Of a stretch of DNA of 64,000 bases, positions 32,056 through 50,937 are shown in pieces. Below the pieces are notes generated by a model. It searched no databases and was not told where the DNA came from. It saw only the letters and a list, made by a program, of their open reading frames with translations. A program made the translations under genes and the position numbers. The stretch comes from Bacilli bacterium (lineage in GTDB: Bacteria; Bacillota_I; Bacilli_A; RFN20; CAG-826), in the NCBI GenBank assembly GCA_045628045.1, contig JAZQOV010000003.1:57495-121494 (forward strand), in the 5' to 3' direction. Within the stretch, counting starts at the first letter, position 1. Each line of letters begins with the position of its first letter.

Positions 32056-32204
32056 TATTCTTTACTAATTTAGAATATACAAAATCTAATTTTTTGCAAT
32101 TATTTATTTAAATTTTGTTTATATATATCAATTAAATTGATATAAAATAATTATCAAATACCAAACCTAATGCAATTATAAACTGCATTGATTTCACATT
32201 AAAT

Positions 32205-32897
32205 TTACCTTTTCTGTTTATTTCTTCTTTTTCTAAGAAACACGAATAAGAAAGCACCACAAGTTACAACGGCTACACCACTTACTACACTTATAATAAT
32301 GATTGAACCATCACTAATAAATGCCCCTACATTATTTGATTTATCACCGTAATAACGGATTGTAATTGATTTAATACATTTATCAAAACCACCATTGCCA
32401 AATACTACAAAGCAAGGATTACTAATAGATGCATTTTCATCCTCTACAAAGTTTTGATTAGGATCATTAAAAAACAGGACTCCAGACTTGTCATTTAAAG
32501 TATAAGAAATGGTTACATATGAATCGTTAAATCTCTCAGCATAAATAGAATAAATATTGTTCAAAGTTAAATTTAAGCTATAACCCCAATCTGTTTCATT
32601 TGCAAAAGAAATATATTCTGGCGTTGTTGCAATTAAACAACTAGAAGTGCACTTAAACGGAATTTTTTGGCCTACATCATCAAAAATAAATCCTTTATAA
32701 ATAGGTTTTTCATTCGGGAAATGATTATGCTCATAGTCGAAAATAATAGTCCTTAATTTGCTCTCATCAATTTTTCCGTCAGCCGAAGCTGGTAAAGGTT
32801 TTAAATTTCCTAAAAATGCTAGACCACCCACTAATGCTAGTGACGCAAAACATATTGCTAATTTTTTGAATATATTTTTCATTTTCATGCCTCGCAT
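32205..32897 (-). CDS. Secreted/surface protein with a C-terminal TM anchor and basic tail
   Basis: N-terminal signal peptide, and a C-terminal IIIISVVSGVAVVTCGAFLFVFL + RKRRNKQKR. Confidence 0.4.
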   Translation of the reverse strand: MRGMKMKNIFKKLAICFASLALVGGLAFLGNLKPLPASADGKIDESKLRTIIFDYEHNHFPNEKPIYKGFIFDDVGQKIPFKCTSSCLIATTPEYISFANETDWGYSLNLTLNNIYSIYAERFNDSYVTISYTLNDKSGVLFFNDPNQNFVEDENASISNPCFVVFGNGGFDKCIKSITIRYYGDKSNNVGAFISDGSIIIISVVSGVAVVTCGAFLFVFLRKRRNKQKR

Positions 32898-33535
32898 TTA
32901 GCATTATTATCGTTTTTACATATTCTTTTTATTAAGAACATGAATGGAACAAACACTAATGAAGGTAATAAGAAAGCAATAACATAGTGATTGCACACTG
33001 CAAAGTAGTTATAAATTGAATGATATATTATAGCGACAGCCACAAGACCAACAGAGCCCGAAACAAAAAGTTTCTTTCTGTTTAAGATGAATGATAAGCC
33101 AAAACCAACCGCCAGAGTGGTAATAACATGCATCATTCCTGAACCGAACGCTCTTAATATTGCGGTAATTACATCAATTTGTTCAGCACGAGATGCAATA
33201 ACAAATGCGTTTTCTAATATTGCAAAACCAACACCGATTGCAATTGATCGCTCAATTAAATCTTGTCTTGAAGGATGCATAACGAATGTACAAATAAAAA
33301 TAGGTATAATTTTAAGTATTTCCTCAATTATTGGAGAAAATGTTGTGACATATGTTGCTTGTGAATATTTTGTATTCTTAAAAATAATTCCATTAATTTC
33401 ACCACATAATAATGCAACAGTTAATCCAATAATAACAAAGCAAACGAGTGATTTTGTCTTACTCTTGGTCATTATAAGTACAATAAGTAAAGGGACTGTA
33501 ATACTTAAATACAAAAACAGATTTAAAAATTCCAT
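32885..33535 (-). CDS. PrsW/CPBP-like intramembrane protease family membrane protein
   Basis: EExxK (IIEEILK) and FAILEN motifs, conserved His in TM helices. The start is taken at an internal Met (MEFLNL...) to avoid overlapping the upstream gene. Confidence 0.45.
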   Translation of the reverse strand: MEFLNLFLYLSITVPLLIVLIMTKSKTKSLVCFVIIGLTVALLCGEINGIIFKNTKYSQATYVTTFSPIIEEILKIIPIFICTFVMHPSRQDLIERSIAIGVGFAILENAFVIASRAEQIDVITAILRAFGSGMMHVITTLAVGFGLSFILNRKKLFVSGSVGLVAVAIIYHSIYNYFAVCNHYVIAFLLPSLVFVPFMFLIKRICKNDNNAKCEA

Positions 33536-34167
33536 TTTTTTGCTCCCTTTGCGCTTGTATAAGATAGACCTAAAATTATAAGTGCGATTAGTAAATCGCC
33601 CACACCAGATAAGATTCCAGTCTTTAACCAACTTAAAATATCTAAATTAACAAAAACACAATAAAGTAAAATGAAAATATCATTCAACAATAAACCATTT
33701 TTTAGGCCAAGTTCATCATTTTGAGACAATAAGCGTTTAACAACAAAATATACTACAAAAGCTAGTGGAATTTGAATCGCAACAAAAAGATAAAATACAA
33801 AATTTGTAGGCTTAAAACAAAAGAAACCAACAACAAAAGAAATGCCGAATTGAAGTAAACCAGATATTGCACTAATTATGATGTATTTAGTTTTTGGCTT
33901 ATCAAATAACTTCTCTAAAGCGCCCCTATTTGCGCAAAATAAGAAAATGTTGCAACCAAGCAATCCAAAGAAACTTGTATTGAAATAAATCTCATTAATA
34001 TTGCAACAAGACATTACGATACCTGTTAAATAAAAAAGTAAAAAACATCCAATTGCACAAACAATAATTTGAAAATACAGAGGCTTTCCTTTTCTCCAAA
34101 GTGTTATGACACCAAAAATAAAGGAGATTAATAATATTGAAAGTGTAGCAATCTTAAAACCAATCAT
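33523..34167 (-). CDS. Hypothetical polytopic membrane protein
   Basis: 214 aa with 6 hydrophobic segments. Confidence 0.4.
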   Translation of the reverse strand: MIGFKIATLSILLISFIFGVITLWRKGKPLYFQIIVCAIGCFLLFYLTGIVMSCCNINEIYFNTSFFGLLGCNIFLFCANRGALEKLFDKPKTKYIIISAISGLLQFGISFVVGFFCFKPTNFVFYLFVAIQIPLAFVVYFVVKRLLSQNDELGLKNGLLLNDIFILLYCVFVNLDILSWLKTGILSGVGDLLIALIILGLSYTSAKGAKKWNF

Positions 34168-34187
34168 TTTTAATGTCAGAACTAAGA

Positions 34188-35615
34188 TTAATTCTCAGCT
34201 CGATTACTAGCTCCTTTTCTTTTCTTAAAATATAAAATCATAAATCCAACCGTTGTTACAAGGAATACTCCTGCAGTGACGGAGAGCAAAATAATAAGCG
34301 AACCGCTTGACATAAGGGTTCCGTTTCCGTCAGAAGGCGTATTATTGTAAAAGGTACAATCTTTTGTAAATGTAAAATCATCACTTGAAGCATAGACAAG
34401 ATAGTATGCGCCGCCTTCTTTTGATGCTTTGCAATCATGTATTTCTAAACACCATAAAGATTGATTTCTATCATTTCCATATACGCCACCGCCGTATTCT
34501 GCAGAACAATTAAATATTGTTATGTGGTCTAAATCGTTATTAAATCCAGAAGCGTAAATGCCACCACCATATCTACCAGCTTCACAACCCGAGATTTCTA
34601 AAAATGAAGACAAACTTCCATACAAACTTCCTTGCTCACAATCGCTATAAATAGCACCACCATCAAATTTGGCAGTACAATCCTTAATTGATGTTTTGTC
34701 AAAAGAGCATCTTTGAAATGCATATTGACTTCTTTGATAATCGTAAGCCAAGTTATCTTCTATATAAATAGCACCACCATAATATGCTGAACAACCTTCA
34801 AAAGTTGATCCTTTTACAGTAAGAATTGGATTGTTACCACCATGAATGATATCTTCAAGATAAACCGCGCCACCATAATATGATTGACAATCATTAAATG
34901 TGCACCCAGTTAAAGATATGGTGTTGATTTTTTCCATGCAAATTGCACCACCATATCCTGTCGAACAACAATTTTCGAATTTACAATTTACAAAACTTGC
35001 ATCATGACAACCGTCACCCATTGCAAATATTGGGTAAGATAAATTAGTTTTGAAACCAAGAATTGTGGTGTTATACACGTCTAATCTACCGGTATCAACC
35101 CAAATTGAACAATTGTATTCATCGCCTGAACGTGAAGTTTTAATTGTTCCACCGTCGCCATTAATGGTAAGACTATAATCTAATTTCCAATAGTCGCCGT
35201 GATTTATTTCTAAGGTTTTTCCGTGTAAATTGATTGTTATCGGCATAGGTAAATTATTACAAAGTTTCAAACTTCTGATGACATAGTCTTTTTCAAGATC
35301 AATAATACACTTTAACGAGGTTTTTTCACTCCAATAACTATAATAATTTGAATGCATTTCTTGAAAGGTATAATCCATGTTTTTATCTTTGAGTTCATAA
35401 ATCATGTCTTCACCTTCATATACTCTAACTACTAATCCACTAACATCTAAGTGTGGAATATCTTTAGAAATCCCAATTGTTCTAACTGGCATTTCAGATT
35501 CAGTGTCAGCATGTACAGGAGCTATTTTATTAGAACTTCTTATGCATAAATTTGTGCCAACAACCATAAACGTGCAAAATAAACCAACTAAAATTGTTTT
35601 TGTTATTTTTCTCAT
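34188..35615 (-). CDS. Surface protein with chlamydial Pmp-like repeats (GGAIY/FxxC) and a C-terminal TM anchor
   Basis: Signal peptide, 6 or more repeats of C...YGGAIY and FxxC/FxxN, then a C-terminal TM followed by KKRKGASNRAEN. RBS GAGGT. Confidence 0.55.
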   Translation of the reverse strand: MRKITKTILVGLFCTFMVVGTNLCIRSSNKIAPVHADTESEMPVRTIGISKDIPHLDVSGLVVRVYEGEDMIYELKDKNMDYTFQEMHSNYYSYWSEKTSLKCIIDLEKDYVIRSLKLCNNLPMPITINLHGKTLEINHGDYWKLDYSLTINGDGGTIKTSRSGDEYNCSIWVDTGRLDVYNTTILGFKTNLSYPIFAMGDGCHDASFVNCKFENCCSTGYGGAICMEKINTISLTGCTFNDCQSYYGGAVYLEDIIHGGNNPILTVKGSTFEGCSAYYGGAIYIEDNLAYDYQRSQYAFQRCSFDKTSIKDCTAKFDGGAIYSDCEQGSLYGSLSSFLEISGCEAGRYGGGIYASGFNNDLDHITIFNCSAEYGGGVYGNDRNQSLWCLEIHDCKASKEGGAYYLVYASSDDFTFTKDCTFYNNTPSDGNGTLMSSGSLIILLSVTAGVFLVTTVGFMILYFKKRKGASNRAEN

Positions 35616-35823
35616 TTTAAATTTAACCTCGAAATTTACGTTATTTTATTTTATAGTATTTTATACTAAAAGTACAATAGATTTGTAACCCTCATGCTCG
35701 TTATATCGTAAAAGAAATTAAACGTCAAAAATCTATAGAAAAATAGAATTTTCTTGGCCAAATTTCAGAGAAGACATCGAGTATATTTCTTCTCGTTACG
35801 ACGGTTAACCATCAGTTCTTCCT

Positions 35824-35968
35824 GGAGGTTCGCTAGGTTCAAGCCTCTAAACCAAACAAAAAGACACCAAAAGGTGTCTGTTATTGTCTTGTCTTGCTGC
35901 AACAAAGTTAATATTTTTTATAACAAGTGCAACGAAGTTAATAGATTGAACGCGACGAAGTTAATATA
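35824..35968. repeat. Intergenic module copy A: tRNA-3'-half-like segment, terminator hairpin, CTTGTCTTG, then triple direct repeat GCAAC(G/A)AAGTTAATA at spacings 30 and 24
   Basis: About 85% identical over roughly 90 nt to copy B at 38563. The hairpin GACACC-AAAA-GGTGTC carries compensatory changes relative to B. Repeats lie at 35899, 35929 and 35954. Confidence 0.6.
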
Positions 35969-36473
35969 TTCTTTCCAATATTGGAGTAACTTCAATTATA
36001 TTTTTACTTTTATCAAGATGGTTTTTGTCCAAAACTGTCTTTGGTCTAACGCAGTATTTAGCATCAATAAAACCAATAGTACATTCTCCATTAGTAGTTG
36101 CAATAGTACATGAGACTTTGCCTTTTTCAAATTTTTCTTGGAATAATAATTTTTGTTCAAATACTGAATCAAAATTAACAAGATGTTTGAGCTTTTGCCT
36201 AACAAAACCTTTTATTTCTTTTGATGAATCACAATCAAAATCGTCTTCCGCAATAGACTCATTAACACATCTATCAAAAAACTCTTCAGCACTTAAATTA
36301 GTTTTTACACCAGTTAGATGTAGAAAATTAGTCTTATAAAATCTCAAAATATATTTGTCAGAAACAACAAAAAGATTTGAAGAAACAGTTATTTTTACAT
36401 TTAATAATTTTGAATAACTTTTTGCTGCATCAACTAGTTGATTTCTTGTTCTTGTTTTAAATGAGATCTGCAT
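35961..36473 (-). CDS. Hypothetical protein (170 aa from ATG 36473)
   Basis: ORF with no recognised motif (contains FLHLTGV). It is flanked by the repeat modules. The upstream track Met would read through the GC-rich element. Confidence 0.35.
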   Translation of the reverse strand: MQISFKTRTRNQLVDAAKSYSKLLNVKITVSSNLFVVSDKYILRFYKTNFLHLTGVKTNLSAEEFFDRCVNESIAEDDFDCDSSKEIKGFVRQKLKHLVNFDSVFEQKLLFQEKFEKGKVSCTIATTNGECTIGFIDAKYCVRPKTVLDKNHLDKSKNIIEVTPILERIY

Positions 36474-36603
36474 AAGTAATAAAAAAAGCGTTTTAAGGTG
36501 CGCCACCACGACTTGGACAGGTTTAAGGTCTCTGGCCCGACGAATTGGGTGGTCTTTTTATGTCTCCCATCCCTCTTGACACTTAGATTATAACAAAGTA
36601 ATA

Positions 36604-36714
36604 AAAAAGATGCAATTAAATGCATCTCAAATTTTCTTGTCTTATTGCAACGAAGTTAATATTTCAAATCTTCACTGCAACGAAGTTAATAGTCGCTAGC
36701 AACGAAGTTAACAT
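36604..36714. repeat. Intergenic module copy M: hairpin GATGCA-ATTAAA-TGCATC, then triple direct repeat GCAACGAAGTTAA(T/C)A at spacings 30 and 22
   Basis: Same three-repeat architecture as copies A and B, with repeats at 36647, 36677 and 36699, but no tRNA-like segment. Confidence 0.55.
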
Positions 36715-36962
36715 ATGTTTTTCGCGCTTTTCGACACTAAAATGATAACTTTTATAATTTAATGTTTCAACAACCAATTATCATAATTTCATTGTATTAA
36801 TATGTCTTGTTGTAACAAAATTAACACAATCAATTTAAATTTTTAAAAAAATAAAACTGTTATGATTACTTGTCTCATCTTTATCGCAATAATGATTTTT
36901 TAACCAAAACGAACGGACATGATAACTTTATCTGAACAACAATCTTATATCACAGATTTTCA

Positions 36963-36992
36963 ATAAAAAAGCAGGACTATAAGTCCTGCTAA
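36963..36992 (-). terminator. Rho-independent terminator after the antiporter gene
   Basis: AGCAGGACT-ATA-AGTCCTGCT hairpin with TTTTTT on the minus strand. Confidence 0.7.
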
Positions 36993-37016
36993 ATACATCA
37001 AACATCTATTGTGATA

Positions 37017-38276
37017 TTAAACACCATTATCAACGTTTGATATGCATGGATTAAGCAGCCTCTTGTAGCTCAAATTCATAACAAGAGAACTTAATGGCGC
37101 AGTTATTAAAATAGATAAAGCAGAAACAGAAAGCACTATAATACCTGCAGCAATAACAGCTTCTGCTCTAGAATTACCATTAGCAAGCATTTGATTTCCT
37201 AAATCTAATAGTCCACCACCAATCGAGGCTTGAACTGTGGCTTTTGGCAAATAAGAAATAGTGACAAAAGACCTCTCTTTAAAGTTTAAATCAGTTTTAA
37301 TTAAGCATCCTTGAACCATTAGTGATCTTGCGGTTAATGAGATTGCTAAGATTACTAGAGCCGGCAAAATGTAAGTTGGAACGTATTCTAATCTAATTGA
37401 AGCTCCAACTAAGAAAAATAGGAACATCTCAGCAGGAATCCATACTTTAGAAGCTTTAGCACTTAATGCTGTAGCCTTTTCTTTTCTAAACATTCTAATT
37501 ACGATACACATAGAGATTGTTGCAAGTAAAGATGAGAAGCCTACATAAGGACTAATTACTTCTTCTAAAGCTACAAAGCCTATACCTATAGCGATTATTA
37601 AGAGTAATTTCATTGAATCTCTCATGTGCACCTTTCCAAAAATAAGCTTTAATAAGAAGCCAAAACCTACACCAATTGCAACACCAATAACGATAGATAA
37701 CAAAATGTTTACAAAAGCCATGGCGTTTACATTACCGCCAGCTTCAATACTTATAAAAGTCTGATAAAAGACAATCATTACGATGTCATCAATGCTACTA
37801 CCAGCTAAAACTAATTGAGGAATACCCTTCTTAGTTCCAACTTTTTCATCCATTAGTCTTGTCATCATTGGAATTACTACTGCAGGAGACACTGCACCAA
37901 GTACTGAACCAAGTAAAAAGGACTCAACATATGTTAAATCAAAGAATAAAGGGGCAACTAAGCCTACAACAATCATTTCAACTACTGCAGGCATAAAAGA
38001 CATCATAATAGCAGGCCTTCCTACTTTCTTTAAGTCTGCTATATCAAGCGATAAACCAGCTTTAACTAAAATAATAATTAAAGCAATTTTCCTTAAGTAA
38101 GGTGAAATTGCAGCAAGATTAGGATCAAATGCTCCTATTGCATTAATCAAAATGCCTAATAAAAGGTAACCAATTAATGCTGGAACCTTAATCTTATTAA
38201 GTAATAGGAAAATTATTGCTCCACCACCTAGAATGATTAATAAGTCTAGAAAGAATAACATTTTGATACCTCCCAA
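37017..38276 (-). CDS. Cation:proton antiporter (Na+/H+ exchanger family)
   Basis: 419 aa, about 11-12 TM segments, CPA-type conserved segments. GGGAGG RBS 7 nt upstream. Confidence 0.75.
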   Translation of the reverse strand: MGGIKMLFFLDLLIILGGGAIIFLLLNKIKVPALIGYLLLGILINAIGAFDPNLAAISPYLRKIALIIILVKAGLSLDIADLKKVGRPAIMMSFMPAVVEMIVVGLVAPLFFDLTYVESFLLGSVLGAVSPAVVIPMMTRLMDEKVGTKKGIPQLVLAGSSIDDIVMIVFYQTFISIEAGGNVNAMAFVNILLSIVIGVAIGVGFGFLLKLIFGKVHMRDSMKLLLIIAIGIGFVALEEVISPYVGFSSLLATISMCIVIRMFRKEKATALSAKASKVWIPAEMFLFFLVGASIRLEYVPTYILPALVILAISLTARSLMVQGCLIKTDLNFKERSFVTISYLPKATVQASIGGGLLDLGNQMLANGNSRAEAVIAAGIIVLSVSALSILITAPLSSLVMNLSYKRLLNPCISNVDNGV

Positions 38277-38562
38277 AGTAAATAAAAACTGATGTATCTA
38301 AAACAATGTCTAGATATCATCAGCATCAAATGCGGTTTGATTTAATCAGGGAGATATCATTCCCGAGATGTATGTATCATAACAAATTTATTTTAAAAAA
38401 CAAGAACTTGTCTCTCTTCCTGAACTTGTTTCTCTTCCTTGCCTATTGAAATTCAATAGCTTTACTTTTCAGAATTCCGTACAATAAAAGCCGGCTCATT
38501 AACTAGTGATTGCTTCTACTTTGTTACGAATCAATTGGGATTAGTTAATGAGTTTTTATTAT

Positions 38563-38704
38563 GGAAGGTCGCTAGTTCAGCCTCTAAGCCAAACAAAAAG
38601 GACACATAGTGTCCTGTTATTGTCTTGTCTTGCTGCAACAAAGTTGATAGTTTTTAAAGTCATCGCAACGAAATTGATAGTTACAAAAGCAACAAAGTTG
38701 ATAG
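38563..38704. repeat. Intergenic module copy B: tRNA-3'-half-like segment, terminator hairpin GGACAC-ATAGT-GTCC, CTTGTCTTG, then triple direct repeat GCAAC(A/G)AA(G/A)TTGATAG at spacings 30 and 24
   Basis: Homologous to copy A, with repeats at 38635, 38665 and 38689. It lies about 80 bp from the tRNA-3' direct repeat R2. Confidence 0.6.
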
Positions 38705-38786
38705 TCATGTTTTTGTAACTTTTTATTTTATATATAAGATATTGAATTTTTACAATAAAATTCGTCTATCCTGCCCTCATCAAAGG

Positions 38787-38810
38787 GTGCGGAGGTAGGA
38801 TTTGAATTTC
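38787..38810 (-). repeat. Direct repeat R2 of the tRNA(CAU) 3' end (att-like core copy)
   Basis: The minus strand reads TTCAAATCCTACCTCCGCAC. That matches the T-loop and acceptor 3' strand of the tRNA at 42930-43007 with a single G to A difference. Confidence 0.6.
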
Positions 38811-38815
38811 TTCAT

Positions 38816-39475
38816 TTATACGGCTTTTGACTGGTACTTATACCAAATTAGGCCATCCAACTTCTTAACTGTTAAGTGAGGATACTCTGCTTTTAGAACA
38901 TTAACTGCATCCTTCATTAAACTCTGGCATTCAGCATTTGAAATGTCATACCCAATAGCATCTCTTATACAATGGTGAATATGAACGTCTGGTTTACATC
39001 TATCATCTGTGCCAGCCAGCATAAATAAATAATCAGCACCAGCATCGCCCATTCCTTTAACTGAATGAATAACAACCTCAAGCAACTCAGGATGCTTAAA
39101 GTTTTTAAAGTCATCCATGGTATTAATGCCTAAATCTAATAGATACTCTGCTAATTTATAAATAACAGCAGATTTTCTGTTATGCCCAATAACCTGCATG
39201 TTCTTTAAAATATTCTGAGCAAATTTTTCTGTGCCACCTGCTTCATCAATGTGGTTAATAAGTTGTTTTAAATCATCACCTGTAGCATATTTATCACCAT
39301 TCATGTATGTTTTTGCATATCTATCAACAATTGGAACAGTAACTGCAAAATATTTAGCCCTTAAAGAATAAACACAATCAATTAAACAAACAGACATTGA
39401 TGAATATCCATTCGCGTAGTGCTTTTGATTTAAATCAAAATTAGTTTTACAAAATTGAACAAATTCTTCAATCAT
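38816..39475 (-). CDS. HhH-GPD superfamily DNA glycosylase-like protein (likely monofunctional; no Fe-S cluster)
   Basis: LLEVVIHSVKGMGDAGADYLFMLAG (helix-hairpin-helix) followed by KPDVHIHH, which aligns with the EndoIII VDTHIFRV Asp loop. The EndoIII Lys-120 position is Ala. Confidence 0.45.
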   Translation of the reverse strand: MIEEFVQFCKTNFDLNQKHYANGYSSMSVCLIDCVYSLRAKYFAVTVPIVDRYAKTYMNGDKYATGDDLKQLINHIDEAGGTEKFAQNILKNMQVIGHNRKSAVIYKLAEYLLDLGINTMDDFKNFKHPELLEVVIHSVKGMGDAGADYLFMLAGTDDRCKPDVHIHHCIRDAIGYDISNAECQSLMKDAVNVLKAEYPHLTVKKLDGLIWYKYQSKAV

Positions 39476-39479
39476 AGTA

Positions 39480-40568
39480 TTAATTTTTATAAAGTTTAAA
39501 ATCTCCTATTTCCTTAGTTCTTGAGTTAATAGTTTTTAAAGAAATTTCAGATGCATCCATACCAACCCAAGTCCTTGAACGTAATTTTGATGCCCACAAT
39601 GTTGTTCCGCTACCGGCAAAGCAATCCATAACAATACTATTTTCAGAAGAAGATTCATCAATAATTCTGAGAATCATATCAAGATTTTTTTCTGTTGGAT
39701 ATCTTGGATATTGAGGATCTTTAAATGTCCAGACATCTTGTATTTTTTTACCTTTATGTTCATCAGCATATTTTTTAATTCTAGGGTTTCCTGTTTTTGA
39801 CCATTCAATTAATCCTTTGGAATCCAATTCATCAAAAACTGCAGGATCGGTTCTCCAATGTCTACCTTCAGGAGGCATCATACCGCGCCATTCCTTCCCT
39901 GTAACGCCATTCGTCTCTCCTGGAGCATGTAACGGTATAGTTGTATAGCGCCTTCCATTTTCATCAATTTTAGGAAACAATTTCGCCAGCTCTTCATCGG
40001 AAGCTTTTTCCTTAATTTCATTCCATAATTGGTTTTTACCGTTTTTACAATAAAAGAAAATGACATCTTTTTCGTTTCCGTATGCTTTTCTATCAAAATT
40101 TTTTGGATTAGATTTAATTCTTGTAATATCATTTCGATAATTTTCTTCTCCAAAAATTTCATCCATTAATATTTTTACATAATGACCAATTTTGTAATCT
40201 ATATGTAGATAAATGCTGCCTCTATCAGTTAAAAGCTCTCTTATAATGATTAATCGTTCTCTTAAGAATTCTAAAAATTCACCTTTAGTCATTTCGTCAG
40301 AATATGCAACCTGTCCTTTTTTTGATCTGCTAATTGTGCTGCACCTTCCTTCTGATACAGCAAATGATTGATTTGTATTAAAAGGTGGATCTATATATAC
40401 CAAATCAATACAAGGGCCGCATGTATTTAATAGTTTAGAGAGTCCTTCAAAATTATCTCCAAATATAAAATTATTTTGGTTTAAATCTAAATCTTCAAAC
40501 TTATCAAAATTTCTTGATTGTTTGAGAATTTCACTCTCACTTAATTTTTCATCGAATTTTAATTGCAT
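39480..40568 (-). CDS. Beta-class amino DNA methyltransferase (N6-adenine or N4-cytosine; N6_N4_Mtase family)
   Basis: Motif IV DPPF near the N-terminus and motif I FAGSGTT near the C-terminus, a beta-class permutation as in DpnA/M.PvuII; 362 aa. Confidence 0.8.
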   Translation of the reverse strand: MQLKFDEKLSESEILKQSRNFDKFEDLDLNQNNFIFGDNFEGLSKLLNTCGPCIDLVYIDPPFNTNQSFAVSEGRCSTISRSKKGQVAYSDEMTKGEFLEFLRERLIIIRELLTDRGSIYLHIDYKIGHYVKILMDEIFGEENYRNDITRIKSNPKNFDRKAYGNEKDVIFFYCKNGKNQLWNEIKEKASDEELAKLFPKIDENGRRYTTIPLHAPGETNGVTGKEWRGMMPPEGRHWRTDPAVFDELDSKGLIEWSKTGNPRIKKYADEHKGKKIQDVWTFKDPQYPRYPTEKNLDMILRIIDESSSENSIVMDCFAGSGTTLWASKLRSRTWVGMDASEISLKTINSRTKEIGDFKLYKN

Positions 40569-40570
40569 AA

Positions 40571-41416
40571 TTATAACGAATATAAAAAGTCTCTTAATAC
40601 TAAAGCAGAAACAATAATGTCATCAGGATTATTTTCTAGGTACTTATGCATTTTATTTTTGCCTTTTATATATAAAACACCGTCCATAATAGCTATTTTT
40701 ACAACTTTAACATCCTTTGCTTTTCCGCCTTCTAAAATAGAGTGTGTGGTTGAAATAGCATCATCAAATTGAGCGTCTTGGTGACCACCAAAATCAGTTA
40801 AGAATTTAGCCTCACCAATTACATATGTATTGTTGAAACGAGCAATAAAGTCAAGTCCTTTATCTCTATTAAAACCAAAGTACTCCTTTGCAAAATTTTT
40901 CATTTCTGCATCGCTAATATTAAGAATCGCGTTTCCTTTGGATAATAAAAATTCCGGTACATTTTTATAGACTGGGGCTCCTAAACATCCTTTGTCTATC
41001 CAATTCTTAAACATTGGACCAATTTGTCTATTCGTTTCTTTTGGTTCTGTACAATTATCATAAATTTCATCAAGCCCCATTTCGTAGAGCATTCCACTAA
41101 TACGATCGATTGTATTAGGATTTCTTTCAATAGCTGTTCTATCTCTTTTCAAGTAAGCAATATAAGAATCCTTAATTGGGAAAATATCAAAATCGCACAA
41201 AGCTTTAATTAAATCTATATTATTTTTGTGTTCAAAATTATATTTAACAGTATTCCATTCTTTATCCCCAATTTCTCTCCTTGCATTAGCAGACATTGGG
41301 TATACTTTGTAAAGTAAATCTAAATAATTCTTTTGGTTCGCTAAATCAACACTTTGTTTTGTCCAGAAGTTCATAAAAGCCTCCTTATTTATATATCTTT
41401 GTGCTAAATAAGTCAC
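40571..41416 (-). CDS. Putative type II restriction endonuclease (PD-(D/E)xK)
   Basis: 281 aa with D...EAK (LDFIARF...YVIGEAKF). Its stop is 3 nt from the MTase start, giving an REase-MTase operon. Confidence 0.45.
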   Translation of the reverse strand: MTYLAQRYINKEAFMNFWTKQSVDLANQKNYLDLLYKVYPMSANARREIGDKEWNTVKYNFEHKNNIDLIKALCDFDIFPIKDSYIAYLKRDRTAIERNPNTIDRISGMLYEMGLDEIYDNCTEPKETNRQIGPMFKNWIDKGCLGAPVYKNVPEFLLSKGNAILNISDAEMKNFAKEYFGFNRDKGLDFIARFNNTYVIGEAKFLTDFGGHQDAQFDDAISTTHSILEGGKAKDVKVVKIAIMDGVLYIKGKNKMHKYLENNPDDIIVSALVLRDFLYSL

Positions 41417-41476
41417 AAAGAAATAAAGTATGGCAATATTATACTCCTCGTTTATACTTTTTTAAATTATTTTGAC

Positions 41477-42031
41477 TTATAACAATGACATATTAATAAT
41501 TTCATCTATCGAAACTTTGAAAATAATAGAAAATTTATAAATTAGCTCGAGTGAAGGCAATCTATGACCTTCTGTGATTGCTACTATAGTAGATCTGTCA
41601 ACGCCGATCATACTAGCGAATTCCGTCTTGCTTGAATAGCTTTCTTTAATAAGAAGTTCAATCTCCTTACCCAAAAGAATCGGATTGATTTGTTTATAAA
41701 TTGTGTTGTTTTTATTAAAAAATATCATCAGCCACTTGTCGTATGCCGATGATATTGATTGATAATAGAATTTAGGTTCTTCTTCATCCTTATGATGCCA
41801 TTCAAGATAATCTATAGCATCCTTTTCATATTGAGTGAGAAGATTATCGTATTCTTTATATAATAAAGTGTATTTAGTTTTTTCTATTTTATCTTCAAAT
41901 GTATCTGGTTCACTTTGATTAAGAAATCTGTATCTTTTTGAATCAGATCTAAAGTCTCTAATGTATTCCTTAATAAATTTCTTAAATCCGTTTTTACTTT
42001 TTGCAAACACATAAGCGCAACTTATCTTCAT
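41477..42031 (-). CDS. Protein with C-terminal XRE-type HTH domain
   Basis: 184 aa. The C-terminal KTEFASMIGVDRSTIVAITEGHRLPSLELIYK is an HTH_XRE domain. It overlaps the upstream gene by 38 nt. Confidence 0.5.
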   Translation of the reverse strand: MKISCAYVFAKSKNGFKKFIKEYIRDFRSDSKRYRFLNQSEPDTFEDKIEKTKYTLLYKEYDNLLTQYEKDAIDYLEWHHKDEEEPKFYYQSISSAYDKWLMIFFNKNNTIYKQINPILLGKEIELLIKESYSSKTEFASMIGVDRSTIVAITEGHRLPSLELIYKFSIIFKVSIDEIINMSLL

Positions 42032-42671
42032 AAATATCCATCACCCTATTAGATATATTCAATAAGTCTAGATACTCTGCAAGTAAAATATAAACTTTTC
42101 GCGGATATCTGATTTCTCTAATGCATTTTTCAAAGACATGATCACTATAGTGTTTCATCAATAAAGTGCCAATAACAGCTCTATAAGCGAGTTTATCACT
42201 TTCTGGCATCTCATCTCTTAAATAGATTAATTCCATCGCTTCCATGATGAATTGAATATCAATAAGATAAAAATCATTTTTCGTTTCGTATAATTGAATA
42301 TTTAATTGTTCAATCAATTTATTTCCATCGGTATAACTCGTTATTATTTCAGCAAGTGATGGTTCATCATAAATAAGTTCGTGTTCATACAAAAGAGATC
42401 TACCACATTTTAGGCCTCTATAATTTTTTGTGTAAAATTCAATAACTCTATCCCTATCGCTTAAATCTGAATCGCCAATTAAATAAATGCCTTTTGAAAT
42501 TTTCCTTAATATGCCTTCTTTAGAAATTCTAGAAATATATTTTCTTAGATTATCAATGGAAATGTCAGGAAATACATGCGTTGATACATAGCTAAAATCT
42601 AAAACACCACCCAAGTGGTTTCTCAAGTAAAGTCTTATTTGTTCAGTATCTGTTAGTCTTGCCATACTCAT
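41994..42671 (-). CDS. Hypothetical protein, possibly AbiEi-like (antitoxin-type wHTH N-domain)
   Basis: 225 aa. The ISRISKEGILRKISKGIYLIGDS segment resembles the AbiEi N-terminal pattern. No AbiEii nucleotidyltransferase partner is present. Confidence 0.3.
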   Translation of the reverse strand: MSMARLTDTEQIRLYLRNHLGGVLDFSYVSTHVFPDISIDNLRKYISRISKEGILRKISKGIYLIGDSDLSDRDRVIEFYTKNYRGLKCGRSLLYEHELIYDEPSLAEIITSYTDGNKLIEQLNIQLYETKNDFYLIDIQFIMEAMELIYLRDEMPESDKLAYRAVIGTLLMKHYSDHVFEKCIREIRYPRKVYILLAEYLDLLNISNRVMDIYEDKLRLCVCKK

Positions 42672-42733
42672 ATTCTAACATAAGAGTGAATTTAATTCAC
42701 TCTTTTTTTGAAAAAGTTCACTTAACTCATAAC

Positions 42734-42756
42734 CTGCGGAGGTAGGATTTGAAACC
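42734..42756 (-). repeat. Direct repeat R1 of the tRNA(CAU) 3' end
   Basis: The minus strand reads GGTTTCAAATCCTACCTCCGCAG, identical to R2 over 19 nt. Confidence 0.6.
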
Positions 42757-42929
42757 TTTCCCACATCCTGCCGAGGTAATTTTTAAGAATGAAGCAATTT
42801 TATCACAAATTTAAAAAACGAGACATTGTCCTGTTTTTGGCTATAAATAATTATGTAATATTATATACATAGTATATAAGCATGAAAAAAGACAACCTCA
42901 CTGATGTAAGATCGTCTCGTTTTCTCGAA

Positions 42930-43007
42930 TGGTTGCGGAGGCAGGATTTGAACGCTGCGACCTCAAGGTTATGGGCCTTGCGAGCTACCAGGCTGCTCCA
43001 CTCCGCG
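42930..43007 (-). tRNA. tRNA-Met (CAU), initiator-like
   Basis: CGCGGAGTGGAGCAGCCTGGTAGCTCG...CCCATAA...GTTCAAATCC...CCGCAACCA. The D-arm is identical to E. coli tRNA-fMet, with a C1:A72 mismatch, CAU anticodon and encoded CCA. The T-stem has one irregular pair. Confidence 0.75.
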
Positions 43008-43126
43008 ATGTGGTTTATATAATAATATAATTAAAAGTTCTTTTCAAGTTATAGATTTTTTTACAAAACTATTTTTACTTATTTTAAGAAATATATATAA
43101 TATATAAGCACTTTAGAGGAAGAAAT

Positions 43127-44011
43127 ATGGATAAACATTCATTAATTAATCTTGTAAAAGAGCTTATTGCTTTAGAAGATTTATCAACAAGAGGTGAGGA
43201 TCTCCTTTTTATTAAAAAAGAATATAGATACTTACTAAATAAAGAAGAAGAATCATTTTATGAATCAAGTCTTACAAATGAATTCATGTCTTTGTATGAT
43301 GAACTCGCTAAAAAGGCACCAAAACTTAATCAAACATCTTTAGATGAAAAGAAAGAAATCATCGAACTTACCAAGAAACTTCTTGAAAGAAAAGACATTG
43401 TAAAAGCTGGTAAAGACTTAGAAGCTTATTCAGAAGCTTTTAGAAAAGCTGGTAAATGCACTCAAGAACAAGATGATGCATTATGGGCAGAATTTAAAGT
43501 TTTAAAAGATAAATATTACGAAAATAGAAGAGCACACTTCGAAGCAATTGATAAATCAAATGCAGAAAAGAAAGCTCAAAAAGAAGCAATTATTGAGCAA
43601 GCAAAAGAACTTCTCGTAATTAAAAACATTAAAGAATCCAATGAAAAAATGGATGCATTAATGAATTCTTGGAAAGAAGTCGGTTTCTCTGGAAAAGATA
43701 ACGACGAAGAACTTTGGCAAAAATTCAGTGAAGTTCGTAAAGAATTTAACTTAAAGAAGAAAGAACATTACGAAGAAATGCAAAAAATCTTTGAAGAAAG
43801 AGCAGCCAAAAAAGAAGAAATGATTAAAGTTGCTAAAAAGATTCTTGCAGACAGTGATTTCTCTAAAGAAGAAGTTCAAAAAATTAAAGATCTTAGAAGC
43901 GAATTTAATGCAATCGGATTTACTGGAAAAGATAAAGACGATGACTTATATGAACGTTTCAACGAAGTAATTAAAAAATACTTCGATGACATGAAGTTCT
44001 ACACATTCTAA
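43127..44011 (+). CDS. DUF349 repeat protein
   Basis: Repeated [DE]LWxxFxxxxxx[YF] units (DDALWAEFKVLKDKYY, EELWQKFSEVRKEF, DDLYERFNEVIKKYF); 294 aa. Confidence 0.7.
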   Translation: MDKHSLINLVKELIALEDLSTRGEDLLFIKKEYRYLLNKEEESFYESSLTNEFMSLYDELAKKAPKLNQTSLDEKKEIIELTKKLLERKDIVKAGKDLEAYSEAFRKAGKCTQEQDDALWAEFKVLKDKYYENRRAHFEAIDKSNAEKKAQKEAIIEQAKELLVIKNIKESNEKMDALMNSWKEVGFSGKDNDEELWQKFSEVRKEFNLKKKEHYEEMQKIFEERAAKKEEMIKVAKKILADSDFSKEEVQKIKDLRSEFNAIGFTGKDKDDDLYERFNEVIKKYFDDMKFYTF

Positions 44012-44042
44012 AAAGAAAAGGGCTTAAGCCCTTTTTATTTTA
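44011..44042. terminator. Bidirectional terminator
   Basis: AAAGGGCTTAAGCCCTTT hairpin with flanking A-run and T-run between convergent genes. Confidence 0.75.
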
Positions 44043-44892
44043 ATAATTTTCTAGCCTCTACAGCATTCTCTAGGAAGTGATGAGCAACTGCCAAGAAATC
44101 AAATCCATGCACCGCTCCTTCTCCACGGTAATGCTTAATAATAGCAACTAAATACCATTGAAGAGAAATGTCGATTCTCCATAATGCATAACGTTTTAAA
44201 CCATCTTTAAGAGGAACAAGTTTTTCATATTCTTCAAGAAGTTTTTTACCTTCAAGAACATCGCCATTTCCGAATGTTCCAATGTCATAAACCGGATCAT
44301 TATTTGCAGCGAACTCAAAGTCAATAAACATGTAATTATCATCGTTTGTTTTTACAATATTGCTTCTTTGAGCATCGTTATGTGCAAGTGTTAATTCTTG
44401 AGAAAGTAGGAACTCTTTATTGTTTTGAATTAACTCATAGAGTTCATAGAACTCTTTATCAAATTCTTTAACGTGAGTTTCTGCTTCTTTTTTAAAGTTC
44501 GCTAGACGAGTTAAAGGATCATAATAAACACTTGCTTTCTTTTTCGAAGAATGAAGCTTGACCATTAACTTTGCGACTTTTTTGTAATCAAATTCATCAA
44601 CAAGATTAATAGATTTTCCATCAATAAAACGATTAATCTTTACTCCTTTTTCAAGGTCAAAATAAATGTTTTCAGAAGTTATTCCTAAATCAAACGCAAT
44701 ATTTTGAGTTTCTTTTTCTAACTTTCTGTCCACCATTTCGTTTGCTTGAGCAGTTGAAATGTAATAAACAAATTTTCCTTTGCTAGATTTAACAATGTAG
44801 GCTTCGTTCATCATTCCACCTACAAGTTCAGAAACAATTTCAGCATCATTTCCAATAATGCTTTTTAATAAATTAAAATTTTCTTCTTTCAT
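44035..44892 (-). CDS. Phosphotransferase family protein (APH/choline-kinase fold)
   Basis: Brenner motif LAHNDAQRSNIV and a downstream DFE; 285 aa. Confidence 0.6.
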   Translation of the reverse strand: MKEENFNLLKSIIGNDAEIVSELVGGMMNEAYIVKSSKGKFVYYISTAQANEMVDRKLEKETQNIAFDLGITSENIYFDLEKGVKINRFIDGKSINLVDEFDYKKVAKLMVKLHSSKKKASVYYDPLTRLANFKKEAETHVKEFDKEFYELYELIQNNKEFLLSQELTLAHNDAQRSNIVKTNDDNYMFIDFEFAANNDPVYDIGTFGNGDVLEGKKLLEEYEKLVPLKDGLKRYALWRIDISLQWYLVAIIKHYRGEGAVHGFDFLAVAHHFLENAVEARKLLK

Positions 44893-44896
44893 AAAA

Positions 44897-45922
44897 TTAC
44901 CATTTATTAGTTACTTTTTCCGCAAAACCTAACATGTTTTCGAAATAGTATTCCTTTCCATCAACCAAAACATAACCTGAGAATTTTCCAAACACTTGAT
45001 TTTGAAGCGATTGAATTACTCCAGCATTCATATTCGCATGTCTATTTAGAATTGGCGTAAACGTAATGTTAATGTCGCCTGAAATACTTCTAAATTTCCA
45101 TGGTTCTAAGAATGAATCACCGCCGCTTTTACTAATTGGAATATCAAAGTGAACATCTTCAAGTTTCCAGGACTTATCTTCATAAAAGAAGATATTTTCA
45201 GAATGTGTCGCGTTATTTCCGAATCCATAACCTAAGTTAAATCCGATTCGTTTTCCTTCAAATTCTCCTGACATGCTGGACCAATACCAAGTATTCTTGT
45301 ATGTCCAGACTCCACGCCCCCAATCTAAAACACCATAAGTTTTTTCATTAAAATCAATAATTTCATCGCCAACTTTAACATAACCATTAGCTTTTAGAAG
45401 GTTGATCTTTTGGTTGTAATAGAAATGCTTGTCTTTATTAAATGGGGTGGCAACCACCATTGAATCTTTGTTTGTTTCCTCAAGATATAAATCAAGTCTT
45501 AAATCTTTTTTGTCTTTGGTAAATTTTTTCCAAAAACACTCAAGATGTCTTTTACCATTTTCATGCTTAAATGTCATGAAAACAGTTTTATCGTGATAAA
45601 TCACATCTCCTTCTTTTGAGGAAGATGGTAAATTAGTTTTACCAAAGGTAAAAAATTTCATTACTGACTTAGTAATGTCGTAAGGTTTTTCAAAATCAAG
45701 AAAAGATAAGGAACATAAAGACATGTAAGAATTATCTGCAATTGTAAGTGCGATTCCATACTTAGAATTACCAACATAATAGTAATCCCATTCCTTAATT
45801 CTCCACTTCTTTGCTTTAATATCTAAACGGTTATATTCCTTCACTAATGAATTAGCATAGCCAGCCTCAAAAAGGTTGCCTTCTTCATTAAGTAGTTTTC
45901 CTGGTTCTAATTTAATCTGCAT
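44897..45922 (-). CDS. Hypothetical protein, DUF2804-like
   Basis: 341 aa. Motifs LLNEEGNLFEAGYA and RIKEWDYYYV...GIALTIADNSYM resemble DUF2804 family members as remembered; not verifiable here. Confidence 0.35.
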   Translation of the reverse strand: MQIKLEPGKLLNEEGNLFEAGYANSLVKEYNRLDIKAKKWRIKEWDYYYVGNSKYGIALTIADNSYMSLCSLSFLDFEKPYDITKSVMKFFTFGKTNLPSSSKEGDVIYHDKTVFMTFKHENGKRHLECFWKKFTKDKKDLRLDLYLEETNKDSMVVATPFNKDKHFYYNQKINLLKANGYVKVGDEIIDFNEKTYGVLDWGRGVWTYKNTWYWSSMSGEFEGKRIGFNLGYGFGNNATHSENIFFYEDKSWKLEDVHFDIPISKSGGDSFLEPWKFRSISGDINITFTPILNRHANMNAGVIQSLQNQVFGKFSGYVLVDGKEYYFENMLGFAEKVTNKW

Positions 45923-46066
45923 ATACTTCTCTTTATACGTTTAAGTATTACTTATAAGCGTAAATAAAATTATAGCACTCGCACAATATAAACAAAAATT
46001 ATTTATTGAAAATAATCTTTAAGTGCTAAAATGAAATTGCAAGTTACTCAAAAGGAGAAACTAATT

Positions 46067-47512
46067 ATGAAAAATAAAAGGGTATTACTTTTAGTGCCAG
46101 CACTTATCTCGCTTGGACTTGGAGGATGCAAAAACGAAGAGAAAAAAGAATGCTACTCCAAAGCAAATCTAAGTGAAATTTTACCAAACAGTAGAATTTT
46201 TGAAGTTAACTACGACAAAGTTGATTACGAAGCTGGAGATGAATTCTGGGCAGTAAATAATGACAACTGGGCAGGCGGATGCTCTGCAGTCACTAAAAAT
46301 ATTGATGGCCATCGTATTGTCGGACGTAACATGGACCTCAATTATTCAAACAAAGCCGCCTACATTTTACGTACGGGGGCAAACGAAAAAGGATACAAGA
46401 CCATAGGTCTTGCATATACATTCCGTGACTATGCAATGGATTATTCTGTTGTTAAAGAAAAAGGTCTCACAAATGAATTTAGAGACATTCTTCCATTCCT
46501 TTGTGATGATGTTATGAATGACCAAGGACTTCATATTGAAGTCAACATGAGACACGCTGAAGTTGATTTCTCAGGGTTTGATCAATTCTCACTTGAAGGC
46601 ACAAATCCAGGTAAACATAGAATTCATATGTTTGAACTTCCTCGTTACATTGCAGAAAATTGTAAAACCGTTGAAGAAGCAAAAAATCTAGTAAATAACG
46701 AATTAGATATTTACTCAAAGAATGGATATTGGGACTATTGTTTCGTTATTTCTGATTCAAATGAAGATGGCTCTGTTCAACATTCTTCCCTTCTTGAATT
46801 CTCCGCAATTGGAGATCTCGGTTATATTTATAACTCACTTCCAGAAGAAGCAAAAAGACCTGGTATTAGCGAAGTTAAAGCAGTCAACTGGATTGATGAA
46901 GAAGATATCGACAAAGTCGATTGGTTAAGAACTGGTCCAACCGGAAATGAAACCTTCTACAAGATGAACGCTTTAGCACAAACAAACTTCTACATTAACT
47001 GGTGGGCATTTGAAAGACAAGATGTCAAATCAGGTGAAGGTAGATTTATCACCATGCAAAAACTTATTCCAAGTGTAAATTCTAAAGAAGATATGTACAA
47101 TCTTATGAGAAGAATTTCTTATTCATCATTTTATGATGAATATGATATTGTTAACGATTATCACTTTGATCCAAGAAGTGAAAACTTAGGTGAAGGACAA
47201 GGTTTAACTTATGATTTCCTCTTCTCTGATGAGTATTTTCCAATTGTTAAAGAACTTCTTAATGCTTCAATTGCACCACAAAAAGAATATGGTTTTGAAG
47301 AAAGAATTGAAAATCATATGTGGGAATCAACATTTACAGAAGTTGTAGATGTAACTGAAAGAAATATTGAAGTTAGATTCTTTGAAAACGAAGACTTTAG
47401 ATTCAAAGTAGATTTCGAAGGAACTACTAAATTAGAGAAGTTAGATGCTGTTGATTGGACTCAATTTACAAAAGTAAGTGAGATTCCGCTACCAGCGCTT
47501 GATAAGGAATAA
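46067..47512 (+). CDS. Linear amide C-N hydrolase lipoprotein (choloylglycine hydrolase/Ntn-hydrolase family) with pro-region
   Basis: Lipobox LGLGGC. The internal GGCSAV...GRNMDLNYSNK matches the Cys-nucleophile and RNMD motif of the CBAH family. RBS AAAAGGAG. The earlier track start lacks an RBS. Confidence 0.55.
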   Translation: MKNKRVLLLVPALISLGLGGCKNEEKKECYSKANLSEILPNSRIFEVNYDKVDYEAGDEFWAVNNDNWAGGCSAVTKNIDGHRIVGRNMDLNYSNKAAYILRTGANEKGYKTIGLAYTFRDYAMDYSVVKEKGLTNEFRDILPFLCDDVMNDQGLHIEVNMRHAEVDFSGFDQFSLEGTNPGKHRIHMFELPRYIAENCKTVEEAKNLVNNELDIYSKNGYWDYCFVISDSNEDGSVQHSSLLEFSAIGDLGYIYNSLPEEAKRPGISEVKAVNWIDEEDIDKVDWLRTGPTGNETFYKMNALAQTNFYINWWAFERQDVKSGEGRFITMQKLIPSVNSKEDMYNLMRRISYSSFYDEYDIVNDYHFDPRSENLGEGQGLTYDFLFSDEYFPIVKELLNASIAPQKEYGFEERIENHMWESTFTEVVDVTERNIEVRFFENEDFRFKVDFEGTTKLEKLDAVDWTQFTKVSEIPLPALDKE

Positions 47513-47524
47513 TTCAAACTTTAA

Positions 47525-47557
47525 GAAAAAATCGGCTATAAGCCGATTTTCTTTTTG
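47525..47557 (+). terminator. Rho-independent terminator
   Basis: AAATCGGCT-ATA-AGCCGATTT followed by TCTTTTT. Confidence 0.75.
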
Positions 47558-47590
47558 ACTAATGTCTTTAGTGGACTGAAATAATACATT

Positions 47591-47626
47591 TTAATTGCAT
47601 ATTTTTCACGAATTTTATGCAATTAA
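47591..47626. repeat. 36-bp palindromic element (IR-L) TTAATTGCAT-N16-ATGCAATTAA overlapping the Fic 3' end
   Basis: Perfect 10-bp inverted arms, nearly identical (one substitution) to the copy at 48701-48736. Confidence 0.6.
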
Positions 47627-48663: not shown

Positions 48664-48669
48664 GTCTAT

Positions 48670-50936: not shown

Positions 50937-50937
50937 T

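Follow-up and report, generated by a model that had tools for sequence, protein, structure and literature searches.

An integrase-less, strain-variable island at a tRNA-fMet gene with a swappable restriction-modification slot and a putative, independently acting DNA glycosylase

The stretch analysed here, called the window, is the 64,000-nucleotide (64-kb) piece of contig JAZQOV010000003.1 (positions 57,495 to 121,494; assembly GCA_045628045.1) from a Bacilli bacterium, and this work deals with five genes located downstream of its initiator-type tRNA-Met(CAU) gene (tRNA-fMet). They encode two presumed regulators, a Type II restriction-modification (RM) pair and a 219-aa protein with the predicted fold of helix-hairpin-helix (HhH) DNA glycosylases. 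In our judgement this segment is likely to be the tRNA-proximal part of a strain-variable, integrase-less defence island at tRNA-fMet, with a glycosylase of predicted activity that works independently of the RM pair. In its organization it is an ordinary defence islet that is linked to a tRNA, lacks an integrase and has an RM slot whose content can be swapped. Regarding the glycosylase, it is most likely an independent defence enzyme resembling the glycosylases known as Dags, rather than an RM accessory, and its family can probably be counted, as a new member, among the defence glycosylases that have been recognised recently. The features of the proximal part are the following, in the order in which they leave the tRNA:

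42930..43007, minus strand: tRNA-Met(CAU), initiator type (called as tRNA-Met(CAT) by ARAGORN; Infernal 46.1 bits against a gathering score of 29 bits)
42889..42918, minus strand: terminator-like hairpin directly 3' of the tRNA, first part of an island spacer of about 175 nt that is conserved in two other contigs, L017 and L161
42735..42753, minus strand: R1, 19-nt copy of the tRNA-fMet 3' end (exact match to TTCAAATCCTACCTCCGCA)
41994..42671, minus strand: AbiEi-like winged helix-turn-helix protein, 225 aa (PADLOC AbiEi, 4.7e-12; weak NCBIfam and Pfam matches)
41477..42031, minus strand: 184-aa protein with a C-terminal XRE-type helix-turn-helix (HTH) domain (HTH_3, 1.2e-08)
40571..41416, minus strand: Type II restriction endonuclease (REase), Tsp45I family (PF06300, 2.5e-104, model positions 1-260 of 260; PADLOC REase_II, 1.5e-97)
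39480..40568, minus strand: beta-class amino (N6/N4) DNA methyltransferase (MTase) (PF01555 N6_N4_Mtase, 3.4e-39; PADLOC MTase_II, 2.4e-152)
38816..39475, minus strand: 219-aa protein of an unannotated family with a predicted HhH-superfamily, MagIII-like DNA-glycosylase fold
38788..38806, minus strand: R2, second exact 19-nt copy of the tRNA-fMet 3' end (TTCAAATCCTACCTCCGCA)
42940-42947, 42765-42772 and 38768-38775: copies of GGCAGGAT, within the tRNA, 12 nt upstream of R1 and 12 nt downstream of R2, respectively

The extent of the island was established with L016, a Logan contig found through a DUF349 protein that falls in the same 90% cluster as that of the window. L016 1-7333 corresponds to window 24812-32151 and L016 7480-12149 to window 42930-47601, both with 98% identity, and the two aligned blocks are separated in L016 by 146 unrelated nt that have no counterpart in the window. 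Hence, the strain-specific insertion is window 32152-42929, which measures 10.8 kb, starts right after the CCA of the tRNA and continues well past R2; the five-gene segment bounded by R1 and R2 is only its tRNA-proximal 4.1 kb. The tRNA of L016 (7480-7557) is identical to that of the window and holds the sole copy of the 19-nt core in that contig. This empty-site comparison identifies the tRNA as the attachment target, with the island beginning directly after CCA. The preliminary description of this locus had suggested looking for an empty site in a relative and had interpreted R1 and R2 as signs of integration at the tRNA 3' end. The interpretation holds for the site of entry, given the empty site at 98% identity and the tRNA-fMet origin of the repeats, but R2 is not the outer boundary. 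The same description had noted that no integrase is present, and in fact no integrase or recombinase was found among all the island open reading frames (ORFs) of at least 150 aa, nor a recombinase among ten further large ORFs scanned in the window. The intergenic gaps of the island do not exceed 540 nt and are occupied by a riboswitch, repeats and terminators. The island is recent.

The only relative found in GTDB was the distant L008 (contig scan with the DUF349 flank; 67% amino acid identity). Synteny is kept on the DUF349 side of its tRNA (9790-9867), and 3' of the tRNA there are unrelated genes and no repeats. L008 was considered as a clean empty site and rejected, given the lack of synteny 3' of the tRNA.

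The tRNA at 42930-43007 presents a C1xA72 mismatch and one bulged nucleotide in the T stem. The mismatch is typical of bacterial initiator tRNAs. In the initiator-type tRNA-Met of this clade, the bulge is an extra nucleotide in the 5' strand of the T stem, and the base of the anticodon stem has no more than two G:C pairs. The T stems of three resident tRNAs, those of the window and of the lineages of L017 (175-250) and L161 (249-324), covary and all retain the bulge. The bulge is therefore a conserved lineage trait and not damage, and the tRNA is functional and host-specific, in line with its earlier reading as an intact gene. An Rfam scan at the gathering threshold over a 22-kb stretch (window 30000-52000) missed this tRNA, which scored 46 bits in a 5-kb search; the same scan reported another tRNA at 51240-51311, which is not among the ARAGORN calls.

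The core TTCAAATCCTACCTCCGCA lies 175 nt (R1) and 4.1 kb (R2) from the tRNA and is present inside it at 42934-42952 with one mismatch (A to G). These two identical copies, one base away from the tRNA, had already been described, and the number of matches expected by chance from shuffled sequences is 0.00. The spans previously assigned to them (42734-42756 and 38787-38810) were right about the core and slightly generous at 23-24 nt, as the identity between R1 and R2 is confined to 19 nt and the flanks differ. The repeat covers the T loop, the 3' strand of the T stem and the 3' acceptor strand, and ends before the discriminator base and CCA. In IMG/VR, 7/7 exact matches of the core are within tRNA-Met genes. 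Since the copies are exact, non-random and matched in IMG/VR only by tRNA-Met genes, R1 and R2 are true, although partial, 3' ends of tRNA-fMet. The A that both have in the T stem would mispair with the 5' T-stem strand of every resident tRNA seen, so they derive from another tRNA allele or from the attP of an element. L017 and L161 have R1 at the corresponding position, with 1 and 3 mismatches, respectively, and the R2 copy of L017 is degenerate. Furthermore, each repeat has an inverted partner, GGCAGGAT, which is the complement of ATCCTGCC of the tRNA and occurs only three times in the window; the partners are on opposite sides of R1 and R2. The motif after R2 is conserved in L017 as GGCAGGAC.

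The islet was found in two other lineages. L017, L018 and L163 represent one other genome, and L161 and L162 represent a third lineage. Looking up the proteins of the window by exact match gave nothing, and L016 and L017 were reached through cluster siblings. In L017, tRNA-fMet follows rpsU and differs from the tRNA of the window at about a dozen positions. From just 3' of this tRNA, L017 matches window 43011-41489 with 90% identity over a stretch that takes in the spacer, R1 and both the AbiEi-like and the HTH gene. A second match, of 83%, covers window 39488-38635, from the start of the glycosylase gene through the degenerate R2 and the first cluster of a 17-nt repeat described below. Between both blocks, L017 encodes a 339-aa gamma-class (Eco57I-like) MTase and a 349-aa protein, and its glycosylase gene starts 1 nt after the neighbouring RM gene. 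The order in L161/L162 is tRNA-fMet, spacer, degenerate R1, AbiEi-like gene (50% protein identity to that of the window), HTH gene, a resolvase gene on the opposite strand, an RM pair of the L017 type (74% and 69% identity), a lipoprotein gene and DUF349. No glycosylase gene and no R2 were found in L161/L162. The resolvase, a small serine recombinase at L161 1743-2339, minus strand (Resolvase, 3.4e-26), located between the HTH gene and the RM pair, is the only recombinase in any version of the islet.

The RM swap in L017 and the RM pair without glycosylase in L161 show that the RM pair is a replaceable cassette and that the glycosylase is separable from it. Moreover, the same head (the spacer of about 175 nt, R1, and the AbiEi-like and HTH genes) stands beside different tRNA-fMet genes and upstream flanks, and is therefore a conserved scaffold that has moved between genomes. 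Comparing the window with L017, the tRNA is more diverged than the island and identity resumes after the 3' strand of the T stem; the exchange point is 3' of the T stem.

An alternative is that this arrangement is ancestral at the tRNA, that L016 lost the block by deletion and that the repeats are incidental leftovers. The order tRNA, spacer, R1, AbiEi-like gene and HTH gene is kept in three lineages, as would be expected, and both the lack of an integrase and the lack of a repeat at the distal end agree with it. Nevertheless, the 146 nt of L016 without counterpart in the window do not correspond to a clean deletion, L008 shows no synteny downstream of the tRNA, and the upstream flanks of the carriers differ (DUF349 versus rpsU). 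In addition, the island sequences of the window and L017 are more similar than the tRNAs themselves, and the T-stem base of R1 and R2 mispairs in every resident tRNA seen. We regard this explanation as quite unlikely. If the island was instead acquired at tRNA-fMet, one or more elements would have entered through site-specific recombination at the 3' end of the gene, in successive insertions. A crossover 3' of the T stem would leave the partial copies R1 and R2, with a T-stem variant foreign to the resident tRNA, and the integrase would have been lost afterwards. From then on, the island would have been one of the interchangeable alleles of a hotspot and would have passed from strain to strain, probably through homologous recombination in the flanks or mobilisation in trans.

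The islands that tyrosine integrases form at tRNA genes (3'-end sublocation) are the closest known counterpart of this structure. The likeness includes the insertion exactly at the tRNA 3' end, the direct repeats from T loop to acceptor, the strain-variable presence and the use of the same tRNA species as target in different genomes. Unlike them, the present island has no integrase, its repeats are internal, its distal junction lacks a repeat, and its RM slot has been swapped by cassette replacement.

Regarding the RM pair, its earlier assignment as a restriction endonuclease and an amino-MTase was borne out and refined to the Tsp45I family, to which both the full-length PF06300 match of the endonuclease and the adjoining MTase correspond. 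The MTase can be ascribed to the beta class from its translation, in which DPPF (motif IV) is N-terminal to FAGSG (motif I), and its product is probably N6-methyladenine. The genes are tightly packed, with 2 nt between those of the REase and the MTase and 4 nt between the MTase stop and the start of the 219-aa protein gene. Two features differ from a Tsp45I-type system: the predicted site GTSAC is not depleted in the window, and the upstream HTH gene is common to unrelated RM cassettes instead of encoding a system-specific C protein. In fact, no other 5-mer pair of the window is over-represented as strongly as GTSAC, contrary to what avoidance of a restriction site would produce.

The AbiEi-like and HTH genes, presumed to encode regulators, form the overlapping pair that had been noticed before; the overlap is 38 nt, and the pair is kept across RM swaps, as seen in L017 and L161. 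The 184-aa HTH protein was considered as a classical C protein, which is unlikely because it is common to unrelated RM cassettes. Only 21 homologues of the AbiEi-like protein were found. No AbiEii nucleotidyltransferase toxin was matched as its partner, which is the HTH_3 protein, and this differs from the AbiE pairing.

The 219-aa protein had been described as HhH-GPD-like. It matched no Pfam, NCBIfam or PADLOC model even at E-values of 0.1-1, HhH-GPD (PF00730) included, and searches of the PDB sequences with the single protein and with a profile returned no glycosylase. The HhH part of that description is upheld by the predicted structure. The AlphaFold2 model, built from 40 sequences, is all-helical (predicted local distance difference test, pLDDT, 94.1; predicted template-modelling score, pTM, 0.89) and presents the two-lobed fold with the helix-hairpin-helix motif of the superfamily. 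Foldseek aligned it to MagIII (PDB 1pu6) with a template-modelling (TM) score of 0.72, and the nearest solved folds are the alkylpurine glycosylases MagIII, AfAlkA and Mag1.

The motif points in the same direction as the fold. An HhH is followed by a Gly/Pro-rich loop and, about 20 residues downstream, by an Asp in the catalytic position. This segment, VKGMGDAGADYLFMLAGTDDRCKPDVHIHH, aligns with residues 110-143 of EndoIII (hhalign E-value 0.11; the E. coli EndoIII sequence was entered by hand) and is the only one aligned to EndoIII by profile comparison. In this alignment, D163 is opposite the catalytic D138, and the invariant A145 is opposite the lyase lysine K120. D163, G141 and G143 are invariant in the 40 sequences. 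With an Asp in the catalytic position and an Ala in place of the lyase lysine, the protein looks like a monofunctional glycosylase, nearer to the alkylpurine glycosylases than to Mig. The C-terminal loop of the [4Fe-4S] type (Cys-X6-Cys-X2-Cys-X5-Cys) is absent, as the last 36 residues hold a single Cys, C183; the conserved Cys are scattered (C30, C34, C160, C169 and C183). Mig.MthI, with which the protein was first compared, and Vsr-type partners resemble it in being base-excision or mismatch enzymes adjoining RM genes on a mobile element. That comparison does not extend to the protein itself, considering its nearest folds and the lack of the Fe-S cluster motif. MagIII, the H. pylori 3-methyladenine DNA glycosylase, also differs from it: the identity is 16%, there is no match at the level of hidden Markov models, and MagIII serves in housekeeping repair, whereas the present family is carried on islands and associated with defence.

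The family is large. The protein has 498 homologues at 50-74% identity, all of them unnamed. A profile search of 1.84 billion representatives gave 1,277 clusters (50% identity) at E<=1e-3 and 660 at E<=1e-10. Only three homologues were found in IMG/VR, and strain L016, despite its 98% identity, lacks the gene. The genomic context was examined at 87 loci, namely that of the window, three that came from exact look-ups, three of viral and 80 of metagenomic origin. Usually, the glycosylase gene closes a co-directional series in which the preceding defence genes vary; its upstream neighbour is co-directional in 69/77 cases, with a median gap of about 21 nt, and recognised defence or Nmad3/Macro genes are present in 45/84 loci. 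Among the neighbours are GIY-YIG proteins, which are full-length UzuA (Uzume; 4.5e-63) or PD-T4-3, and also Mrr-like proteins and other members of PDC-S02, McrBC, GmrSD, HsdR, UvrD-PD-(D/E)xK, RNase III-like and NucS-like proteins, and an Mko-like helicase. Rare fusions carry an N-terminal RNase III-like domain (3.7e-14) or, weakly, a GIY-YIG domain (0.0065) (P0147 and P0149), and these fused domains mirror genes that stand as separate neighbours at other loci. Nmad3 and Macro genes appear at 18 loci, frequently accompanied by SF1-helicase-DUF2726, vWA and ADP-ribosylglycohydrolase proteins; most of these loci are near-identical gut contigs and may represent a single oversampled lineage. In these human-gut contigs (L076-L101), the recurrent string is Macro, Nmad3, the glycosylase homologue, vWA and ADP-ribosylglycohydrolase, often with the SF1 helicase-DUF2726 gene first. 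The Macro-Nmad3-glycosylase string could possibly be an uncharacterised system linked to nucleotide or ADP-ribose modification.

Varied defence neighbours and few viral homologues are thus the signature of a defence-island gene and not of an MTase partner. This bears on two other explanations of the 219-aa protein. In the first, it would be a self-protection or repair accessory of the RM operon that removes mis-methylated or alkylated bases (3-methyladenine-type) made by the MTase or by S-adenosylmethionine, cutting the cost of carriage. The three nearest solved structures are alkylpurine glycosylases, which agrees with this idea, as do the short distances to the preceding gene, 4 nt from the MTase stop in the window and 1 nt from the RM gene in L017. 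However, most homologues follow genes that do not encode MTases (UzuA, Mrr-like, PD-T4-3, McrBC, GmrSD or Nmad3-Macro), the L017-type RM pair exists in L161 without the glycosylase, and the two neighbouring RM systems have MTases of unrelated classes, beta and gamma. A repair accessory is unlikely in our opinion, and the same findings do not support it as one of the two roles, repair accessory or defence effector, that the preliminary description had offered for the glycosylase.

In the second explanation, the 219-aa protein would be a base-excision restriction enzyme like R.PabI, which attacks the unmethylated site and is kept in check by the adjoining MTase. Restriction glycosylases exist (PMC10273834), and a glycosylase fold is encoded directly downstream of an MTase in two islets. 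Nevertheless, a cognate Tsp45I-family REase is already present, the two adjoining MTases are unrelated, and the fold is HhH and not the half-pipe of R.PabI. Homologues are also common without an MTase nearby, a situation that would be lethal for such an enzyme. This proposal is extremely unlikely. That most homologues have no MTase neighbour disfavours both explanations.

Dags are small HhH-fold glycosylases missed by sequence searches, described in Vibrio integron cassettes and other mobile contexts, which degrade phage DNA containing 7-deazaguanines and defend against such phages (Getz et al. 2025, bioRxiv 10.1101/2025.10.29.685425). The 219-aa family fits this kind by fold and context, the two features on which it is likened to them here. 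Like the Dags, it consists of a single domain of about 220 aa, is AT-rich and has an HhH fold undetected by sequence models; it is also found, unlike core repair glycosylases, in mobile or defence loci and is absent from close relatives, as happens in L016. The differences concern the hosts, mainly Clostridia- and Bacilli-type metagenome contigs versus Vibrio integron cassettes, and the chemistry: Dag1 appears to be bifunctional with an essential Lys, whereas this family has an invariant Ala at the position of EndoIII K120. Brig1/2, with a uracil-DNA glycosylase fold, and Brig3, with an AAG-like fold, are analogous to the Dag-type defence glycosylases; Brig3 was dismissed as a relative of the 219-aa protein on account of its fold.

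If the glycosylase is an independent defence enzyme, as we propose, the RM pair would restrict unmodified incoming DNA, and the glycosylase would excise a non-canonical base from invader DNA that escapes restriction. The resulting abasic sites would block replication or be cut by the apurinic/apyrimidinic endonucleases of the host. From the observed fold, motif and context we infer the substrate and the phenotype. Since the gene tends to close restriction operons of different kinds, a division of labour in two tiers suggests itself, in which plain DNA would be left to restriction and modified DNA to base excision.

Several observations weigh against the combined proposal of a tRNA-fMet island with an independent glycosylase. 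At the distal junction (32152), no copy of the tRNA end was found at <=3 mismatches, and direct repeats of the tRNA 3' end are not present at both island boundaries. Considering this and the 146 unrelated nt of L016, the island was not, in the last step of its acquisition, simply inserted into this strain by an integrase. Moreover, the distance between R1 and the tRNA is conserved in three lineages, which a reading of R1 as a pure relic fails to explain. As regards the genes, MagIII, the closest solved fold, is a repair enzyme; GTSAC, the predicted specificity, is not avoided in the window (62 observed versus 43 expected under a maximal-order Markov model); only about 20 neighbour clusters were annotated; and the possible oversampling of the Nmad3-Macro loci must be considered.

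If the family is active in defence, it would add a large group, the clusters counted above, invisible to Pfam, NCBIfam and PADLOC, to the antiviral DNA glycosylases, and this class would be extended from Vibrio integrons to Firmicutes of guts and fermenters. In any case, the islet is a clean natural example of RM cassette exchange within a conserved tRNA-linked scaffold. A bolder version can be put forward only tentatively, and we doubt it more than we believe it: the family of about 220 aa would be an unrecognised and very widespread Firmicutes-type clade of defence glycosylases, which serves as a generic second layer 3' of Type II, Type IV, Uzume, PD-T4-3 and Nmad3-Macro modules and targets a modification other than the 7-deazaguanines of the Vibrio Dags, and the tRNA-fMet-linked head would be a dedicated platform for RM exchange.

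Beyond R2, the island carries the following cargo and junctions:

38599..38705, minus strand: junction C, after R2, with three 17-nt direct repeats (38635-38705) and then an intrinsic terminator
38304..38373, minus strand: fluoride-riboswitch-like leader of the Na+/H+ exchanger gene (Rfam RF01734, 33 bits against a gathering score of 34 bits, E-value 2e-06)
37017..38276, minus strand: Na+/H+ exchanger family gene, island cargo (PF00999, 9.2e-38)
36607..36715, minus strand: junction B, after the Na+/H+ exchanger gene, with three 17-nt repeats (36647-36715) and then a terminator
35961..36509, minus strand: PBECR4 (Barnase/EndoU/ColicinE5-D/RelE-like) nuclease-domain gene (PF18813, 8.1e-19)
35862..35968, minus strand: junction A, after PBECR4, with three 17-nt repeats (35899-35968) and then a terminator
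32152..35615, minus strand: distal cargo encoding a 475-aa secreted protein, a 214-aa membrane protein, a PrsW-family protease and a 230-aa protein (island end at 32152 from the L016 alignment)

The 17-nt repeat is GCAACRAAGTTRATAGT, with spacings of 30 and 22-24, and all three clusters have one orientation. Its nine matches compare with 1.1 expected, and none is found elsewhere in the window. The junctions were seen in two genomes only; in L017 a 17-mer cluster also follows R2 and precedes a DUF3800 gene, and divergence from the window starts right after the third 17-mer. No Rfam family matched the junction regions, and in viral contigs the 17-mer gave only single matches, consistent with chance. 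The PBECR4 homologues of L164-L166 share the gene and its leader without the 17-mers. Over 39 nt, junction A (terminator and flank) shares 90% identity with L008 9744-9782, directly after the tRNA-fMet of L008. The likeness of junctions A and C to this region suggests that both are copies of the native sequence downstream of the tRNA that have been displaced, as would fit a degraded accretion array. The flank of junctions A and C was also considered as a decayed tRNA on the opposite strand and rejected because the putative T stem does not pair.

The junctions allow another explanation, in which the island is a cassette platform and the sites of three 17-mers plus terminator are recombination sites that load single genes (Na+/H+ exchanger, PBECR4 or DUF3800), like the attC sites of integrons. 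Both the excess of the repeat, confined to three junctions in one orientation, and the different gene that follows the same junction in L017, with divergence right after the third 17-mer, would be consistent with gene loading. Nonetheless, there is no recombinase, the PBECR4 homologues lack the 17-mers, the junctions are restricted to two genomes, and the similarity of A and C to the region downstream of the L008 tRNA suggests relics of a duplicated flank. Such a platform is very improbable.

Outside the island, the window shows other features. A local GC peak at 48600-49500 (0.40-0.46 versus 0.33 in the window) is covered by a 199-aa ORF and an antisense 169-aa ORF, for which no Pfam match and no Rfam family at gathering score were found. 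Three genes encoding Fic/DOC-domain proteins, one of them with an N-terminal Bro-N, are located within 22 kb (28570-29463, 47623-48732 and 50001-50936). Furthermore, a second variable region was detected by comparing window 44035-51100 with L008 10882-13211. In the window, about 7 kb encoding APH-like, DUF2804 and CBAH proteins and two of the Fic genes separate DUF349 from tRNA-Ser; in L008, tRNA-Ser comes directly after DUF349, and the APH-like and DUF2804 genes are found past this tRNA and oriented the other way.

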